This document shows, piece by piece, positions 49,879 through 64,000 of a stretch of 64,000 bases of DNA (positions are counted from its first letter, which is position 1; each line of letters begins with the position of its first letter). The stretch is from Shigella phage ESh17. The stretch lies in sequence record ON528727; one strand, written 5' to 3'. The notes under the pieces are model-generated. The model was not told the origin of the DNA. It saw only the letters and a program-made list of their open reading frames with translations, and did no database searches. Both the position numbers and the translations under genes were made by a program.

Positions 49879-50213
49879 TGAATTTAACTGATATAATTGA
49901 TAATTGTCTTGAAAATGATGCTGGCGATCATAGAGCGCTTGATTCTGAAACAGCACAGTTCATTAGAATAACTTTAATGAATGATACTCTGGTGAATAGT
50001 ATTCATCCTTCTGTGTATGATGCTATTATTGTGACGAAGTATCCAGTTGAGCTTCACAAAAAGATGGTTGGCGCAATTTTTATTGATAAGAAAAACCGCT
50101 TTAAAGATGGGCAGAATATAATTAGTTCTGTTATTAAAAGTATAACTAAACTTCGTCACGAAATTTATCGTGTTGAAACTGCTAAATCTGCTTATCTGGT
50201 GATTATGAAATGA
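49875..50213 (+). CDS. hypothetical protein (112 aa)
   Basis: ORF track. Confidence 0.5.
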   Translation: MMNLTDIIDNCLENDAGDHRALDSETAQFIRITLMNDTLVNSIHPSVYDAIIVTKYPVELHKKMVGAIFIDKKNRFKDGQNIISSVIKSITKLRHEIYRVETAKSAYLVIMK

Positions 50214-50791
50214 AAGCGAGTACAGTACTTCAAATTGCATATTTAGTATCACAGGAATCAAAATGTTGCTCCTGGAAGGTAGGAGCAGTAATTGAAAAGA
50301 ATGGACGTATTATTTCTACTGGGTATAATGGTTCCCCAGCAGGGGGTGTGAACTGTTGTGATTATGCTGCTGAGCAAGGTTGGTTGTTGAATAAGCCTAA
50401 ACACACTATCATTCAAGGTCATAAGCCTGAATGCGTATCATTTGGTTCAACTGATCGTTTTGTTTTGGCGAAAGAACATCGTAGCGCTCACTCTGAATGG
50501 TCGTCTAAAAATGAAATTCATGCTGAACTAAATGCAATTTTGTTTGCTGCACGAAATGGTTCTTCTATTGAAGGTGCTACTATGTATGTAACACTTTCTC
50601 CTTGCCCAGATTGCGCAAAAGCAATAGCTCAATCTGGTATTAAAAAGCTGGTTTATTGCGAAACATATGATAAAAATAAACCTGGCTGGGATGATATTCT
50701 GCGAAATGCAGGTATTGAAGTGTTTAATGTTCCTAAGAAAAACTTGAATAAGTTAAATTGGGAAAATATCAACGAATTCTGTGGTGAATAA
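50210..50791 (+). CDS. cd: dCMP deaminase
   Basis: 193 aa; zinc-binding HAE...PCxxC deaminase motifs. Confidence 0.9.
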   Translation: MKASTVLQIAYLVSQESKCCSWKVGAVIEKNGRIISTGYNGSPAGGVNCCDYAAEQGWLLNKPKHTIIQGHKPECVSFGSTDRFVLAKEHRSAHSEWSSKNEIHAELNAILFAARNGSSIEGATMYVTLSPCPDCAKAIAQSGIKKLVYCETYDKNKPGWDDILRNAGIEVFNVPKKNLNKLNWENINEFCGE

Positions 50792-51392: not shown

Positions 51393-51728
51393 ATGTCTGA
51401 AGTACAACAGCTACCAATTCGTGCTGTCGGTGAATATGTTATTTTAGTTTCTGAACCTGCACAAGCCGGTGATGAAGAAGTTACAGAATCAGGACTTATT
51501 ATCGGTAAACGTGTTCAAGGTGAAGTTCCTGAACTGTGTGTAATTCACTCTGTTGGTCCTGATGTTCCTGAAGGTTTCTGTGAAGTTGGTGATTTGACTT
51601 CTCTTCCAGTTGGTCAAATTCGAAACGTTCCACATCCTTTTGTAGCTCTGGGTCTTAAGCAGCCAAAAGAAATTAAGCAAAAATTCGTTACCTGTCACTA
51701 TAAAGCTATTCCGTGTCTTTATAAGTGA
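51393..51728 (+). CDS. 31: co-chaperonin gp31 (GroES analogue)
   Basis: 111 aa; matches remembered T4 gp31. Confidence 0.9.
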
Positions 51729-51736
51729 TATAAATA
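51729..51736 (+). promoter_or_regulatory. late promoter TATAAATA downstream of gene 31
   Basis: Exact TATAAATA. Confidence 0.4.
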
Positions 51737-51875
51737 ATAATATGAATTGGGTGTCGGAATAATAAGTTAACCGAACAATTCTATGTGGTAGTCTACAACT
51801 GAGAGATCTGTCGAAAGAAGATGAAATTCAGAAGAACGTGACTACCGAGTTTTAATCTCTAACGAGAATTTTTAA

Positions 51876-52124
51876 ATGATTAAACAATTACAACACGCTC
51901 TTGAACTGCAACGAAACGCATGGAATAATGGTCACGAAAACTATGGCGCATCTATTGATGTTGAAGCCGAAGCTCTTGAAATCCTGCGTTATTTTAAACA
52001 TCTGAATCCTGCTCAAACTGCATTAGCTGCTGAGCTTCAGGAAAAAGATGAACTTAAATATGCTAAGCCTCTGGCTTCTGCTGCACGAAAAGCAGTTCGT
52101 CACTTTGTGGTAACACTGAAGTAA
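51876..52124 (+). CDS. rIII: rIII lysis-inhibition accessory protein
   Basis: 82 aa; size and position as T4 rIII. Confidence 0.8.
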   Translation: MIKQLQHALELQRNAWNNGHENYGASIDVEAEALEILRYFKHLNPAQTALAAELQEKDELKYAKPLASAARKAVRHFVVTLK

Positions 52125-52368
52125 TTTATTGGAGATTCACTGCCTTAGTGTGAGCTAAAATCGAGGAGCCGTCGAACTGTCTGATTAATGATTTGCGAAT
52201 CATTATAGTTTTAAGACCCCGGCAGTTTTACGGTGTACCTCTTGAATGTGAATGATGACGGGTTTATGGTTATCCTGTCGGTAAATATACAAAACCTAAG
52301 TACCCCCTTGAGGGCTTGCGCAGGCAATGCCAATAAGTCCTGCATTTTCATTTAAAAGAGAATTTATA

Positions 52369-52545
52369 ATGGCAAAACAAGTTAAAGCAAAGAAAGCAGT
52401 TGAAAAGAAAGTTGGTGATTCTAAACGCGCTGGCTACAAGCGTGGGTCGAACTCTCGTATCAATCAAACTGTTGAGAAGATCATGCGCCGAGCACGTGCG
52501 GTTCTTCGAGATGATGCTTCTCGTTTTGGTAAGCAGAAAGCATAA
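52369..52545 (+). CDS. hypothetical highly basic protein (58 aa from ATG)
   Basis: Track ORF 52327 trimmed; K/R-rich MAKQVKAKKAVEKK... Confidence 0.45.
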   Translation: MAKQVKAKKAVEKKVGDSKRAGYKRGSNSRINQTVEKIMRRARAVLRDDASRFGKQKA

Positions 52546-52550
52546 GTTGA

Positions 52551-52574
52551 GGACTCCTTCGGGAGTCCTTTTTT
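52551..52574 (+). terminator. intrinsic terminator (same hairpin as soc terminator)
   Basis: ggactccttcgggagtcc + tttttt. Confidence 0.75.
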
Positions 52575-52598
52575 ATTTTCCAAAGATTGCATAAAGTT

Positions 52599-52628
52599 GT
52601 TTACAGTATAGTTCCTTTGTGATAGTAT
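52599..52628 (+). promoter_or_regulatory. T4 early-type promoter
   Basis: gtttac 52599-52604, tagtat 52623-52628. Confidence 0.55.
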
Positions 52629-52655
52629 TATCTTACACAAACAAAGGAGAATAAA

Positions 52656-53024
52656 ATGAAAATCAATCTTAACTCATACATCAAAGGTAAAGATCACGAC
52701 GGCTATAAAGCTATCGAAACTAAAGAACTTCAGTGGCACTTATACAAAGAACAATTTGAATTTGTAAGTTGCATGACTCCTGAAGGTCCTTCTGATGATT
52801 TCTCTTGGAAAATAATGTTAACTAACTTTTTTACTGGAGATACATACGAATTGAAAACTTTGATTATTGGTAAAATTCGTTGTGAGACTTATGAAGATAA
52901 AGAAACTGGTTACTCTGAAGATGTTACGTGGTATCAAAATGGTCGTATTACCGCTGACCTCTTGATTGAAAAAATGAAAGCCAAAGGTGAATTAAATTTA
53001 GATAATTGGATTAAAGTTGCATAA
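52656..53024 (+). CDS. hypothetical protein (122 aa)
   Basis: ORF track. Confidence 0.5.
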   Translation: MKINLNSYIKGKDHDGYKAIETKELQWHLYKEQFEFVSCMTPEGPSDDFSWKIMLTNFFTGDTYELKTLIIGKIRCETYEDKETGYSEDVTWYQNGRITADLLIEKMKAKGELNLDNWIKVA

Positions 53025-53483: not shown

Positions 53484-53500
53484 TTGCTGAGGAAAATACT

Positions 53501-53788
53501 ATGTTTATGACTACTTATTTTGATACTCGTAAAAACTTCTGTGAAGTGGTTTTCTCTAAGGCGCCTAAAGACCTTCCTGCTCATTTGCAACCTACCAGCG
53601 AATCGATTAAAAACTACGTTAATGTAGTATGTCCTTTAGAGTTCCGTACTGTAAATGGGCGCGATACTTTAGCTATCACTAAACTCAATCGTGAAATTGA
53701 CATTGACCCTTCAATTGCGCGCGAAATTAATATCTCTGATATTGGCGGCGGTAATGTTAAATCGCACGGTTTTCAGATGAGGTTCTAA
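53501..53788 (+). CDS. hypothetical protein (95 aa)
   Basis: ORF track. Confidence 0.5.
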   Translation: MFMTTYFDTRKNFCEVVFSKAPKDLPAHLQPTSESIKNYVNVVCPLEFRTVNGRDTLAITKLNREIDIDPSIAREINISDIGGGNVKSHGFQMRF

Positions 53789-61999: not shown

Positions 62000-62965
62000 T
62001 TATATTGCTCCTAATATTTTACTTTGCGAATTGACAATTCCCGTCATAGTATTAATGTTTGAAATGCTTCCCGCAGTTCCTCCTAATCTACTAAGTCGTG
62101 AAAGCGAATTAGATAGTCCAGTAACACCTCCACTATTTCCGAGAACGCTTTGAATGCCATTTATAGCAGCAGATTCAAGCCACTCAAGCGCAGCTTGTCT
62201 ATCAACCGACCCAGCCTGCATGACTCTATACGCAAAAGTAACATCAAATGTAGTTATTTGGTTATCTCCATCATATGATAGCTCAGGAGCGCTCACTGAC
62301 ACTGGAATGCATCCGGTGAACATCACTGCAGTATGAGGTAATCCATTACGAGCATGAAGATTAACCTGAATATCTGCCTCAACATCTTGTGGCAAAGCAC
62401 GCAGTCCAGTTACTGGGTCTTGAACAGCGTTAACCCAGTCTTGCATTGCACGATAGTTACAAGCTTCTGAATCCATTCTAAATGAAATAACCAAAGGGTC
62501 TAATTCTCTCCCAGTTATACGAATATTAGGAGAGTTATAGTTCCAGTCAGTTTCATAGGATAATCTATTCTCTGGCATTTTTACAGAGTATATCATCAAT
62601 CCAGATGAATTATATGCCATATTAAAGAAGTCAATTAAATATGTACCAACTGTAAATGAACCCAATAAACTTTGAACTGTACGTTGACTCATGGCACCAA
62701 TAAGATATTTACTAACCCCTGATTTTCTTATCAGTTTTTGTGTGCCAGCAGTAATTAGCGTGGTAATTCCCTGATTAATATCGCCTTGAGTCAATCCTAA
62801 CCAATCTGAATTTAGACCCAAGTTATTATAAGAAAAGTTGCTAATTGAACTTATCAACGAAGAGCTTTTAGTTGATGGAGTTGTCGCAAAAACGCAGCTA
62901 AACATATTATTACGTTGAAAATCTGCGTTTATTGCTTGATTATTAAATTCCTCTAAAGAATACAT
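62000..62965 (-). CDS. 54: baseplate protein gp54
   Basis: 321 aa; T4 gp54 size and position. Confidence 0.8.
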   Translation of the reverse strand: MYSLEEFNNQAINADFQRNNMFSCVFATTPSTKSSSLISSISNFSYNNLGLNSDWLGLTQGDINQGITTLITAGTQKLIRKSGVSKYLIGAMSQRTVQSLLGSFTVGTYLIDFFNMAYNSSGLMIYSVKMPENRLSYETDWNYNSPNIRITGRELDPLVISFRMDSEACNYRAMQDWVNAVQDPVTGLRALPQDVEADIQVNLHARNGLPHTAVMFTGCIPVSVSAPELSYDGDNQITTFDVTFAYRVMQAGSVDRQAALEWLESAAINGIQSVLGNSGGVTGLSNSLSRLSRLGGTAGSISNINTMTGIVNSQSKILGAI

Positions 62966-64000
62966 TAAAAAGTCCCCGCATATAAAGAAGCACGGTTTAA
63001 CGTGATAATTTCTCTCATAGTAATCTCAAGAGTAAATGTACTAGGGAGGTTTGGAGCAATAGCTAATCCGTTAAAGTTACCATTAGGCGTTTTATCAAAT
63101 CTGATGCTCTGTATTTGGCATGGACCAAATATTTCCGTTTTTCCATCAAACTTAGATGTTGCGCCAAAGTTTTTCACCATCCAAATTGTCGGGTTTGAAA
63201 CTACTAAAACGTTAGTTAAACTTGATGTCATTTTCTCAAATAGTGTTTTATTTTTAGCTGCGTCTTCCGGAGATAAAGGTTCAATTAACGTAGAACGATA
63301 CCAATCATCTAAATACCCCTTTATTTCAGCAGCATATTGAGATTTACCAGTTTCACCATAAGAAAAATAGTTAAAATATTGATAGATATTAATAATAGCC
63401 ATCAAATCTTCTGTTGAACGTGGAGTCAAATCCCATGTAAACACTTTAGTTCTATTCTCAGCACCACCATACATACTTCTGGCTGTCGTATAAATCTGTT
63501 CATTATTATCAGCCATTATACCTTGTGTTATACTTTCCAGTGCCCCAAACACTGCAGTTGAAGCAATATTACTTAACACACCAGTAGCAGTACCTCCGCC
63601 TCTGCTGATAAGACTTTCTTGAACATCATTAAATCTGTGTGATGATGTATCAACATCAGATTTAGATCTCGGTAAAAGAATGTTTGCGACAGGAGCTTTA
63701 CTTATTGTTCCTGAATTGTTATTTGATATTAATCCATTTGATAGTTTTGATACTGTACTACTAATAGTGTTTCTAGCTGTACTTAAAATACTCGAAGATG
63801 AAGAAGAGTAGTTAGATCTCATCGATCTAAGACTTCCAGAATCCCTAGATGACATATTGTATGCAGTAAATAATAATCCATTCTTATATAGATCTGTTAC
63901 CTGGAAGTCCCCTGTAGTGTCATTACCACTAGCACGCCCAGTTGGAAACTGGGCAGTGTATGTTTTAGTTGCTACTTCTGATTTAGTACTCTGTCCGGCT
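62965..64000 (-). CDS. 48: baseplate protein gp48 (5' end beyond window)
   Basis: Frame stays open upstream of track ATG 63855 to the window edge. Confidence 0.75.
   Translation of the reverse strand, partial: AGQSTKSEVATKTYTAQFPTGRASGNDTTGDFQVTDLYKNGLLFTAYNMSSRDSGSLRSMRSNYSSSSSSILSTARNTISSTVSKLSNGLISNNNSGTISKAPVANILLPRSKSDVDTSSHRFNDVQESLISRGGGTATGVLSNIASTAVFGALESITQGIMADNNEQIYTTARSMYGGAENRTKVFTWDLTPRSTEDLMAIINIYQYFNYFSYGETGKSQYAAEIKGYLDDWYRSTLIEPLSPEDAAKNKTLFEKMTSSLTNVLVVSNPTIWMVKNFGATSKFDGKTEIFGPCQIQSIRFDKTPNGNFNGLAIAPNLPSTFTLEITMREIITLNRASLYAGTF

Follow-up and report, generated by a model that had tools for sequence, protein, structure and literature searches.

The 244-nt non-coding gap between rIII and gene 30.9 of Shigella phage ESh17 (record ON528727) is an array of conserved, covarying, modular and horizontally mobile RNA elements, which lie on the rIII-sense strand. 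The gap belongs to a 64,000-nt stretch of DNA, called the window throughout, and its modules, designated A, B, D, E and F, follow one another in that order from the rIII stop codon to the ribosome-binding region of 30.9. On balance we favour the view that this spacer is co-transcribed as a series of small RNAs that fold independently of one another and plausibly serve as decoys against ToxN-type defence. That the modules are transcribed and processed, and that any anti-defence activity they have is exerted in trans, most plausibly against ToxN-type abortive infection, is what we infer from the analysis below.

Genomic context of the spacer

The window is a segment of a Tequatrovirus genome, in which the rIII-30.9 region is 100% identical to that of Shigella phage ESh18 and the spacer is 96% identical to that of T4. 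The gene order on the + strand begins with cd (50210-50791) and continues with 31.2, 31.1 and gene 31 (51393-51728), after which come a late-promoter motif (TATAAATA, 51729-36), rIII (51876-52124, with its TAA stop codon at 52122-52124), the gap itself (52125-52368) and 30.9 (52369-52545). The ribosome-binding region and start codon of 30.9 (AAAAGAGAAUUUAUAAUG) were placed at 52354-52371 from the ORF list and the sequence, with the ATG at 52369. The counterpart gap in T4 is also 244 nt long and is unannotated (NC_000866 130541-130784). A terminator scan identified a strong terminator 3' of 30.9, at 52549-52570, which is the first true terminator past the 30.9 ribosome-binding region and is followed by an early-type promoter for 30.8.

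Scanning 52125-52368 revealed no sigma-70-type promoter, the nearest promoter-like sites being at 51901-29 and 52600-28, and 30.9 therefore relies on read-through. Candidates for a MotA box and for a late promoter that had been picked out by eye in the spacer were dropped, as their spacing or sequence was wrong. The PeSL cassettes of T4-type phages are mobile and consist of an early sigma-70-type promoter joined to a stem-loop; on this definition of the family, 52125-52368 falls outside it, having no promoter-like site in the scan. No transcript ends, stable RNAs or transcripts of the rIII-30.9 spacer were reported in the literature that we searched.

An earlier sequence-only reading of the window had described the gap as visibly richer in GC than its flanks and had taken this composition, together with the stem density, as fitting a small structured RNA, a long regulated leader or a remnant of a mobile RNA element. 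The argument from composition was mistaken, as the GC fraction of the spacer (0.402) is no higher than that of rIII (0.406) or 30.9 (0.441); it lies only about 1.2 standard deviations over the mean for the window (0.357), and 14% of 244-nt segments are as rich in GC.

A mosaic of modules on the rIII-sense strand

The spacer is present in 770 phage records. In order to follow it among more distant relatives, 40 IMG/VR loci were taken via rIII and everything from rIII to 30.9 was extracted, and among these a long spacer of 120-416 nt persists across the Tevenvirinae down to about 70% rIII identity. In relatives the spacer is pieced together from recurring blocks, as a mosaic in which both the order and the number of blocks differ, and the region is therefore a set of autonomous units with no single long fold. 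The block order A-B-D-E-F of the window is replaced by D-A-C-E-G in Klebsiella-type T4-like phages; the window has block G of these phages one spacer earlier, at about 51787-51846. The junction 52249/52250 is a hotspot for module insertion, at which relatives have, at exactly this position, either module C of about 150 nt or module H of about 45 nt, and where the window and T4 carry neither. In ACG-C40, alignment places an insertion of 153 nt at this junction, and a scan of the insertion found no tRNA or tmRNA. Module C, a 140-nt RNA of relatives that Rfam does not contain, keeps more than 91% identity in comparisons in which rIII has about 75%, a conservation above that of the flanking proteins.

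Folding of the sense strand gives -64.2 kcal/mol, with a z score of -2.19 against shuffled sequences, whereas the antisense strand gives -48.6 kcal/mol and, with a z score of -0.35, is no better than shuffles. Taken with the invariance of G.U pairs in module B, this difference places the structure on the + strand. Close relatives differ in the spacer by indels of +1, -1 and -2 nt, which argue against coding.

The sequence-only reading had offered a small structured RNA as one interpretation of the gap, and had named covariance analysis and an Rfam search as ways to check it. Covariation across related phages does support the stems of module B and of the pseudoknot D, and to that extent the interpretation was right; what did not hold is that there is one RNA, since several autonomous modules vary in order, number and genomic location. 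Similarly, its suggestion of a remnant of a mobile RNA element was correct in so far as the modules are shuffled and horizontally transferred, but they are conserved and not decayed. The Rfam 15 covariance models gave no match in 52125-52368 at an E value of 10 or less, nor in seven related spacers.

Module B is a covarying rod shared between phage families

Module B (52158-52249, + strand) is a 92-nt three-helix rod, defined by RNAalifold and by pair counts in an alignment of 19 distinct sequences from four phage lineages. Its helices are P1 (52163-66/52238-41), P2 (52168-72/52230-34), P2b (52174-76/52226-28) and P3 (52177-81/52221-25), and the rod carries a P4 hairpin (52186-52205) with a UGCG loop of the UNCG type. 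Unpaired nucleotides are also conserved at the junctions, namely UGAU (52182-85) and GUA (52235-37), and there is a U-rich 3' internal loop at 52206-20. Compensatory double changes occur in 14 of the 25 pairs, and 98.9% of cells are paired, compared with 92.1% in shuffles. The covariation was matched by none of 500 shuffles and collapses in slid controls. A covariance model built for B has exactly one match in the 64-kb window, at 116.8 bits.

Two pairings that had been proposed in this part of the gap from the sequence alone can be judged against the alignment. The stem 52186-52193/52198-52205 is confirmed as P4, with compensatory changes in four of its eight pairs. The pairing of 52219-25 with 52275-81 finds no support, as 52221-25 covaries with 52177-81 in module B and 52274-79 is part of D; moreover, other phages can have B without D or D without B. 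A reading of B as a hammerhead (CUGAUUA...CGAA) was considered and rejected, as it has U at position 8 and lacks the GAAA element, and Rfam gives no such match. There may in addition be a third helix in B, in which the A-tract lying 5' of P1 would pair with the U-rich internal loop. Every lineage allows this pairing, and in PsgM04F the tract lengths covary, although the sequences are of low complexity and we mention this as a suggestion only.

Module B is found in other genomic locations. In the Vequintavirinae phage W70 it lies directly 5' of two tRNAs and a homologue of T4 RNAD, in PsgM04F the modules A-B-H lie between tRNA-Gln and tRNA-Pro, and in Kuravirus B lies between a hypothetical gene and terL. 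The copies outside the T4 family have many compensatory changes. When a degenerate B pattern was searched against 185,579 species genomes and JGI metagenomes it was recovered in phage contigs only. B thus behaves like a mobile small-RNA gene confined to phages, and its position between tRNA genes in other phages makes it resemble a small stable RNA gene. BLAST detected no host counterparts of B, D, E or F in 72,556 plasmids and 5,426 E. coli genomes, and none was detected in the 185,579 species genomes. Modules B and D, and C where relatives carry it, may each represent a new RNA family.

Module D has the architecture of an H-type pseudoknot

Module D (52257-52300, + strand) was defined from 33 distinct sequences in which both stems covary. 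Stem 1 (52257-62/52274-79, GACGGG/CCUGUC), already noticed as an inverted repeat and now upheld, encloses an 11-nt loop (52263-73), and the first 7-9 nucleotides of this loop (52263/5-52271) pair with 52293-52300 to make stem 2. The downstream arm of stem 2 is preceded by a conserved A-rich linker (CGUUAAAUAnnCAAA; GGUAAAUAUACAA at 52280-92), and a conserved UGAUG lies just 5' of D at 52252-56. Stem 2 is found in the alternative forms UAUGG/AACC-UA, CAAGG/CUUG, GUAGU/ACUAC, GUUGG/CCAAC and GUGAG/CUCAC. The alignment was fitted by hand, with gaps as N, and no gaps are required for the central stem-2 pairs of the divergent phages. Across it, pairing reaches 90.1% over 16 pairs, eight of which have double changes, and the covariation score of 0.394 compares with 0.138 in shuffles and at most 0.105 in slid controls. 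The topology that these pairs give D is the classical one of an H-type pseudoknot, in which loop 3 is long and A-rich. Two other readings of the sequence 5' of D were rejected: a kink-turn or C/D box at UGAUGA has no partner GA, and for a small leader ORF starting in AUGAUG neither the AUG nor the frame is conserved.

The architecture of D is shared with the TenpI and CptI antitoxins, which are H-type pseudoknots with an A-stretch (PMC12283969). D also holds an AAAU, and the minor groove of stem 1 could accommodate its long A-rich loop 3. However, D has no repeats and no sequence match in plasmids or E. coli genomes, and the likeness is architectural only. Another comparison is with the operator of the T4 gene 32 mRNA, which is likewise an RNA pseudoknot of the T4 group with a UUAAA-type A/U-rich sequence (PMC3014915). 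Here the sequence and position differ, and the A/U-rich part of D is loop 3 and not a downstream unstructured tract over the ribosome-binding site.

Modules E and F and the possibility of a 30.9 leader

Module E (52300-52318, + strand; GUACCCCCUUGAGGGCUUG) is a mini-hairpin of the form GUACCC-loop-GGGCUUG that was recognised by its sequence conservation. It is present in nearly all spacers at various positions, before F, G, D or C, and always directly 5' of another hairpin or module. The stem of E hardly varies, so that its conservation is mainly one of sequence and the hairpin is a prediction.

Module F (52320-52353, + strand) is a hairpin with a U-rich tail. Its GCAGG/CCUGC stem (52320-24/52339-43) had been noted as an inverted repeat and is corroborated by covariation, being AACUGG/CCAGUU in L019 and L034 and containing a G.U pair in L017, while the conserved 14-nt loop (CAAUGCCAAUAAGU) is kept throughout. 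The U-rich tail (AUUUUCAUUU) occupies 52344-53, just 5' of the 30.9 ribosome-binding site. A simple scan did not call F as an intrinsic terminator, because its loop, at 14 nt, exceeds 8 nt; the stem of F has 5 bp and its U-tract is interrupted. F and its U-tail probably also damp read-through into 30.9.

One possibility is therefore that the whole spacer is a cis-acting leader of 30.9, in which the structures, most obviously F and its U-tract, attenuate read-through from rIII and control initiation of 30.9, perhaps by means of a protein or ligand that binds D. The dependence of 30.9 on read-through is in keeping with this, as is the fact that every spacer variant has a hairpin and U-rich tract (F, G or GAGAGG) directly before the 30.9 ribosome-binding site, which in many relatives can also pair with an upstream UCUCC, and there is a precedent in T4 in the gene 32 pseudoknot operator (PMC3014915). 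Nevertheless, modules A and B are also found at a distance from any 30.9 gene, within tRNA clusters or beside terL, the order and content of modules upstream of 30.9 vary freely, and no riboswitch or leader of Rfam matches. We consider this explanation unlikely for the spacer as a whole. It accounts for about 50 nt at most, at the 3' end, where it may still hold for hairpin F; the long regulated leader suggested by the sequence-only reading may likewise fit these last 50 nt but not the remainder.

Module A and its relation to ToxI

Module A (52131-52161, + strand; GGAGATTCACTGCCTTAGTGTGAGCTAAAAT) is a single ToxI-like unit, or pseudo-ToxI, that was assigned using the ToxI consensus from an E. 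coli toxIN plasmid, a series of intermediates and its fixed position. The A variant of Klebsiella-type phages (GGTGATTTGCTACCAAAGTGCAGCTAGAAA) matches toxI arrays in 65 small plasmids, at 3-10 places in each. In one E. coli plasmid the matches are a 36-nt repeat (AGGTGATTTGCTACCTTTAAGTGCAGCTAGAAATTC) in 5.6 copies; a terminator comes next, together with a gene whose annotation is a toxin of the ToxN/AbiQ family, and this plasmid locus is therefore a toxIN. The reverse search found ToxI-like single units in about 200 phage records from several families. These include phiTE, where the matched feature is annotated pseudo-ToxI, and a Kuravirus also carrying B, which has one complete unit between terL and portal.

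The units form a graded series from ToxI through the phiTE pseudo-ToxI, L016/L015 and L063 to the window, in which the T4-like members all lie between the rIII stop and module B. Identity along this chain is 31/35 from ToxI to L016, 30/35 from L016 to L063 and 28/32 from L063 to the window. The Gaprivervirus-type units are identical to ToxI at 31 of 35 positions and have the U9C/A25G compensation known from phiTE, and PSD2001 (L063) combines a 5' half of the Gaprivervirus type with a 3' half of the T4 type, differing from module A of the window at four positions. Compared directly, ToxI and module A of the window agree at 25 of 35 positions, and the local score of 26 is within chance over 128 kb, where shuffled-window maxima were 24-36. 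The direct similarity alone is thus not significant, and the link of module A to ToxI runs through the intermediates in related phages.

The pseudoknot of ToxI can also be traced. We considered six pairs, of which U9-A25 and the count of four G:C pairs are taken from the literature (PMC3475682; PMC5772629) and the remainder were deduced here. In an alignment of 18 sequences that was fitted by hand to the structure, these pairs are 93.5% paired, with double changes at 2-15, 9-25 and 10-24. In the window they would correspond to 52131-33/52142-44, of which the third is an A.G mismatch, and 52138-40/52150-52, so that module A retains five of the six pairs and four G:C pairs. It has the U9C/A25G compensation of the phiTE pseudo-ToxI and, in addition, G10A/C24U. 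The nucleotides C27 and U28, which contact ToxN, are retained, the window having G-C-U-A at positions 26-29 (52153-56) as in ToxI, whereas phiTE has G-A; mutating C27 or U28 of ToxI abolishes antitoxicity (PMC3475682). A ToxN-type cleavage motif, AAAU, lies at the 3' boundary of module A (52158-61). The unit is not tandem or bounded by cleavage sites, as there is no AAAU upstream of it, G30 of GAAAU is lost, and no tandem repeats were found in 51700-52700, leaving it single-copy. It should be noted that Rfam misses a genuine toxI array too, and its silence on module A therefore carries no weight. On these comparisons, module A appears to be a diverged single-copy homologue of ToxI, connected to it via intermediates, a relationship that the sequence-only reading had missed.

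Module A can be set beside two known RNAs. With ToxI itself, an RNA of 36-nt repeats that has a pseudoknot and is processed by ToxN, it has in common the compensated short stems, the four G:C pairs and the AAAU, but not the tandem array, the adjacent toxN gene or the 5' cleavage site. With the phiTE pseudo-ToxI (PMC3475682; NC_020201 106714-106772) it shares the character of a phage-borne, toxin-less, diverged ToxI repeat in a non-coding cluster with other small RNAs, the U9C/A25G pair, an extra A before AAAU in the closest T4-like versions, and repeats that are, as found, too few for an efficient antitoxin. In phiTE the 1.5 repeats are inactive until expanded (PMC3475682). The two differ in that phiTE has 1.5 units and the window one, that the window keeps the C27-U28 that phiTE lost, and that the window has the further changes U4A, A13G, G10A/C24U, an inserted A and loss of G30. 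Moreover, the phiTE element lies in a cluster of tRNAs and small RNAs, whereas module A of the window is in an mRNA spacer, fused to B.

The tRNA-cluster setting also invites comparison with T4 RNAC and RNAD (species 1/2 RNA), in that B or pseudo-ToxI lies in the tRNA clusters of W70, PsgM04F and phiTE, on the same strand as the RNAD homologue. By analogy, this position suggests maturation as a stable small RNA. When the rnaC/rnaD region of T4 (71053-71171 and 70908-71046) was compared with all spacers by blastn, the only match was the RNAD homologue of W70, with nothing in the rIII-30.9 modules; RNAC and RNAD lie in the T4 tRNA region, while the T4-type modules lie in an mRNA spacer and are unrelated in sequence.

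A proposed function in counter-defence

We propose that transcription of rIII would always yield the modules too, on transcripts that start at its late promoter or at early and middle promoters further upstream and end at 52549-70. When the phage shuts off host transcription, labile host ToxI would decay and the RNase ToxN would be freed, a mechanism described previously (PMC9391042; PMC5772629), and a ToxI-like pseudoknot made by the phage could then act as a competitive ligand or decoy for RNases of the ToxN family, bringing back inhibition in the way that has been shown for expanded pseudo-ToxI in phiTE (PMC3475682). In this scheme module A would be the T4-group equivalent of the phiTE pseudo-ToxI, and other A-rich pseudoknotted or rod-like modules may possibly also be ToxN-family decoys. 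B and D are autonomous structured RNAs, and gp30.9, a conserved basic protein of 58 aa whose gene follows the spacer, is a candidate partner for them. Alternatively, module A may be a seed that is able to expand or recombine under selection.

Data from T4 bear on this proposal. E. coli toxIN restricts wild-type T4, whose escape comes about by amplification of the protein inhibitor tifA and not at the rIII-30.9 locus (PMC9391042; PMC10853763), which counts against an effective role for A in T4, and T4 has been reported as not aborted by ToxIN(Pa) (PMC5772629). The single copy of A, its A.G mismatch and lost motifs, and the negative searches for host RNAs that B, D, E and F could mimic also weigh against the proposal. 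A broader version of the proposal is that the spacer is a modular RNA counter-defence island of T4-type phages, shared with Vequintavirinae, phi92-like phages and Kuravirus, in which A, B, C, D and H are each a decoy or mimic of a different host immune RNA or RNA-binding effector and are swapped like protein anti-defence genes. We offer this tentatively and regard it as rather doubtful.

The same elements might instead give rIII a structured 3' UTR, serving to hold off 3' exonucleases or RNase E or to guide how the polycistronic message is processed, with no role in trans. Dense stable helices do begin right after the rIII stop, P4 has a UNCG-type tetraloop, and GGAG motifs of the RegB type are found at 52131 and 52165, rIII having been linked to control by RegB (PMC9409239). 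Yet simple stabilisers need neither conserved unpaired nucleotides nor pseudoknots, nor would they need to spread as discrete units among the tRNA genes of phages that are unrelated, and this reading does not explain why A resembles ToxI. We regard this explanation as quite unlikely.

It is very improbable that the spacer is a decayed protein-coding gene or the inert scar of a mobile element. Short ORFs are annotated here, such as ACG-C40_0208a and a 123-nt ORF in ESh18, and relatives show indels at one hotspot; but, as the sequence-only reading had held, there is no convincing ORF. Mechanical ORFs reach at most 46 aa, neither they nor the annotated ACG-C40 ORF have a Pfam or PHROGs match, and these searches gave no homology to a decayed coding gene. 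Furthermore, the indels break the frame, the substitutions are compensatory for RNA pairing and not synonymous, and conservation, as with module C, exceeds that of the flanking proteins. An element acting as DNA through its inverted repeats (a recombination or homing site, an origin or a protein-binding array) would suit the sharp module boundaries, the hotspot and the exchange of T4-type cassettes by recombination, but is the least credible reading of all, as many of the conserved G.U pairs turn into C.A when the opposite strand is read, only the sense strand beats shuffles, GNRA- and UNCG-type loops and pseudoknots are features of RNA, and the spacer has no promoter-like site. Each of these readings, whether leader or attenuator, stabiliser, decayed gene or DNA element, accounts for less of the evidence than does an array of RNAs.

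Significance

A phage pseudo-ToxI is already known from phiTE, which is the only case of antitoxin mimicry by a phage RNA reported in the literature that we searched, and a 2010 review listed no riboswitch or small trans-acting RNA functionally characterised from T4 (PMC3014915). The literature on ToxIN, on T4 escape from toxIN, on T4 post-transcriptional control and on the T4 transcriptome, within our incomplete coverage of it, makes no mention of a ToxI-like sequence or of structured RNAs in the T4 rIII-30.9 spacer, and on that coverage a ToxI relative in this spacer has not been described previously.

If our interpretation of the array of RNA modules is correct, T4 and hundreds of T4-like phages that are candidates for therapy carry an unannotated relative of ToxI. 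Modules B and D, backed by covariation, and the 140-nt module C of relatives would belong to no described family and would be moving between phage families. They would be testable candidates for RNA-based counter-defence, and may provide a reason why close phages differ in their sensitivity to type III toxin-antitoxin systems. Annotation of the region should then carry these RNA features in place of spurious hypothetical-protein calls. T4 is the reference lytic phage, and in this locus it may possess an unrecognised RNA-based counter-defence.

Predicted transcription, and annotation of the spacer

A T4 late-promoter motif, TATAAATA, lies directly after the stop codon of gene 31 (window positions 51729–51736), and late transcription of rIII together with the spacer that follows it (52125–52368) would start from this motif. 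At the other end of the spacer, gene 30.9 (52369–52545) encodes a strongly basic protein of 58 amino acids (phrog_1427) and is found directly 3′ of the RNA array in all T4-like phages examined. It is conceivable that gp30.9 is a candidate RNA-binding partner of the array RNAs.

In many deposited T4-like genomes gene callers have placed short ORFs across structured RNA modules, and for the spacer these calls include ESh18 URY12172.1, ACG-C40_0208a and several entries named ‘hypothetical protein’. The calls over the spacer have no family support and are disrupted by indels in close relatives. Near the spacer Rfam gave one sub-threshold match only, Atu_C8 at 52501–52584 (31.4 bits, where the gathering score is 50); this match is the terminator hairpin of 30.9 and says nothing about the spacer.

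Alternative inserts at one hotspot

Many relatives carry an insertion at the position equivalent to 52249/52250, between the rod (module B) and the pseudoknot (module D). One occupant, module C, is an RNA of approximately 140 nucleotides (CGGCAAGTGCATG...GCTAACGGTGTGCAACAGATAAGAG; for example positions 1872–2014 of L002, a locus from a related phage), which is present as one copy in each of 404 phage records, from Tequatrovirus and from phages of Klebsiella, Enterobacter, Citrobacter, Serratia and Edwardsiella. It had no match in Rfam. It is predicted to fold with 44 pairs and shows compensatory changes in 17 of the 44, a GNRA-type hairpin being among them, and its identity exceeds 91% in phages whose rIII is only about 75% identical.

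The alternative occupant of this hotspot, module H, is an insert of approximately 45 nucleotides (...GCGTCAGAAAAAGGTTATCTGTCTAAG...) that Mosigvirus and Dhakavirus phages carry there, as do some of the Tequatrovirus phages. Examples of the module are present in loci L005, L007, L011–L013 and L064–L066 and at 1310–1350 of L071; in the tRNA cluster of phage PsgM04F it comes after modules A and B, and in the related locus L022 it forms the core of the hairpin that precedes 30.9.

Related RNA elements at other sites

The spacer between gene 31 and rIII contains a hairpin, GGTAGTC...GACTACC around CTACAACTGAGAGATCTGTCGAAAGAAGATGAAATTCAGAAGAACGTG (51787–51846), that is 85–92% identical to a module which Klebsiella- and Citrobacter-type T4-like phages have just 5′ of 30.9; the intergenic position of one and the same RNA block thus varies from phage to phage.

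Among Vequintavirinae, the tRNA cluster of phage W70 (L068 553–1167) contains a homologue of the T4 small stable RNA RNAD, also called species 2 RNA (88.6% over 44 nucleotides and 90.6% over 32 nucleotides). In phiTE (L074 300–800) an RNAD-like stretch was seen by eye only, and a sequence resembling the 3′ half of a tRNA, with its T-arm, acceptor strand and CCA, lies directly 3′ of the pseudo-ToxI unit.

Within the window, TTTAAGTACAGCTAGAAA (63770–63790, minus strand) matches the 3′ half of the antitoxin RNA ToxI (TTTAAGTGCAGCTAGAAA) at 17 of 18 positions. This stretch is coding DNA, inside the ORF at 62965–63855, and the 5′ half of ToxI is absent upstream of it; the resemblance could be due to chance or reflect a ToxN-related sequence.

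Horizontal transfer of the block

The complete spacer, with a partial or complete rIII, is present at 96% identity in non-T4-like phages with genomes of approximately 150 kb, namely NC_023693 (phi92, 53492–53736), MH675927 (PD114) and the loci L043 and L044. Such identity outside the T4-like phages indicates that rIII and the RNA modules were moved recently as one block by horizontal transfer.
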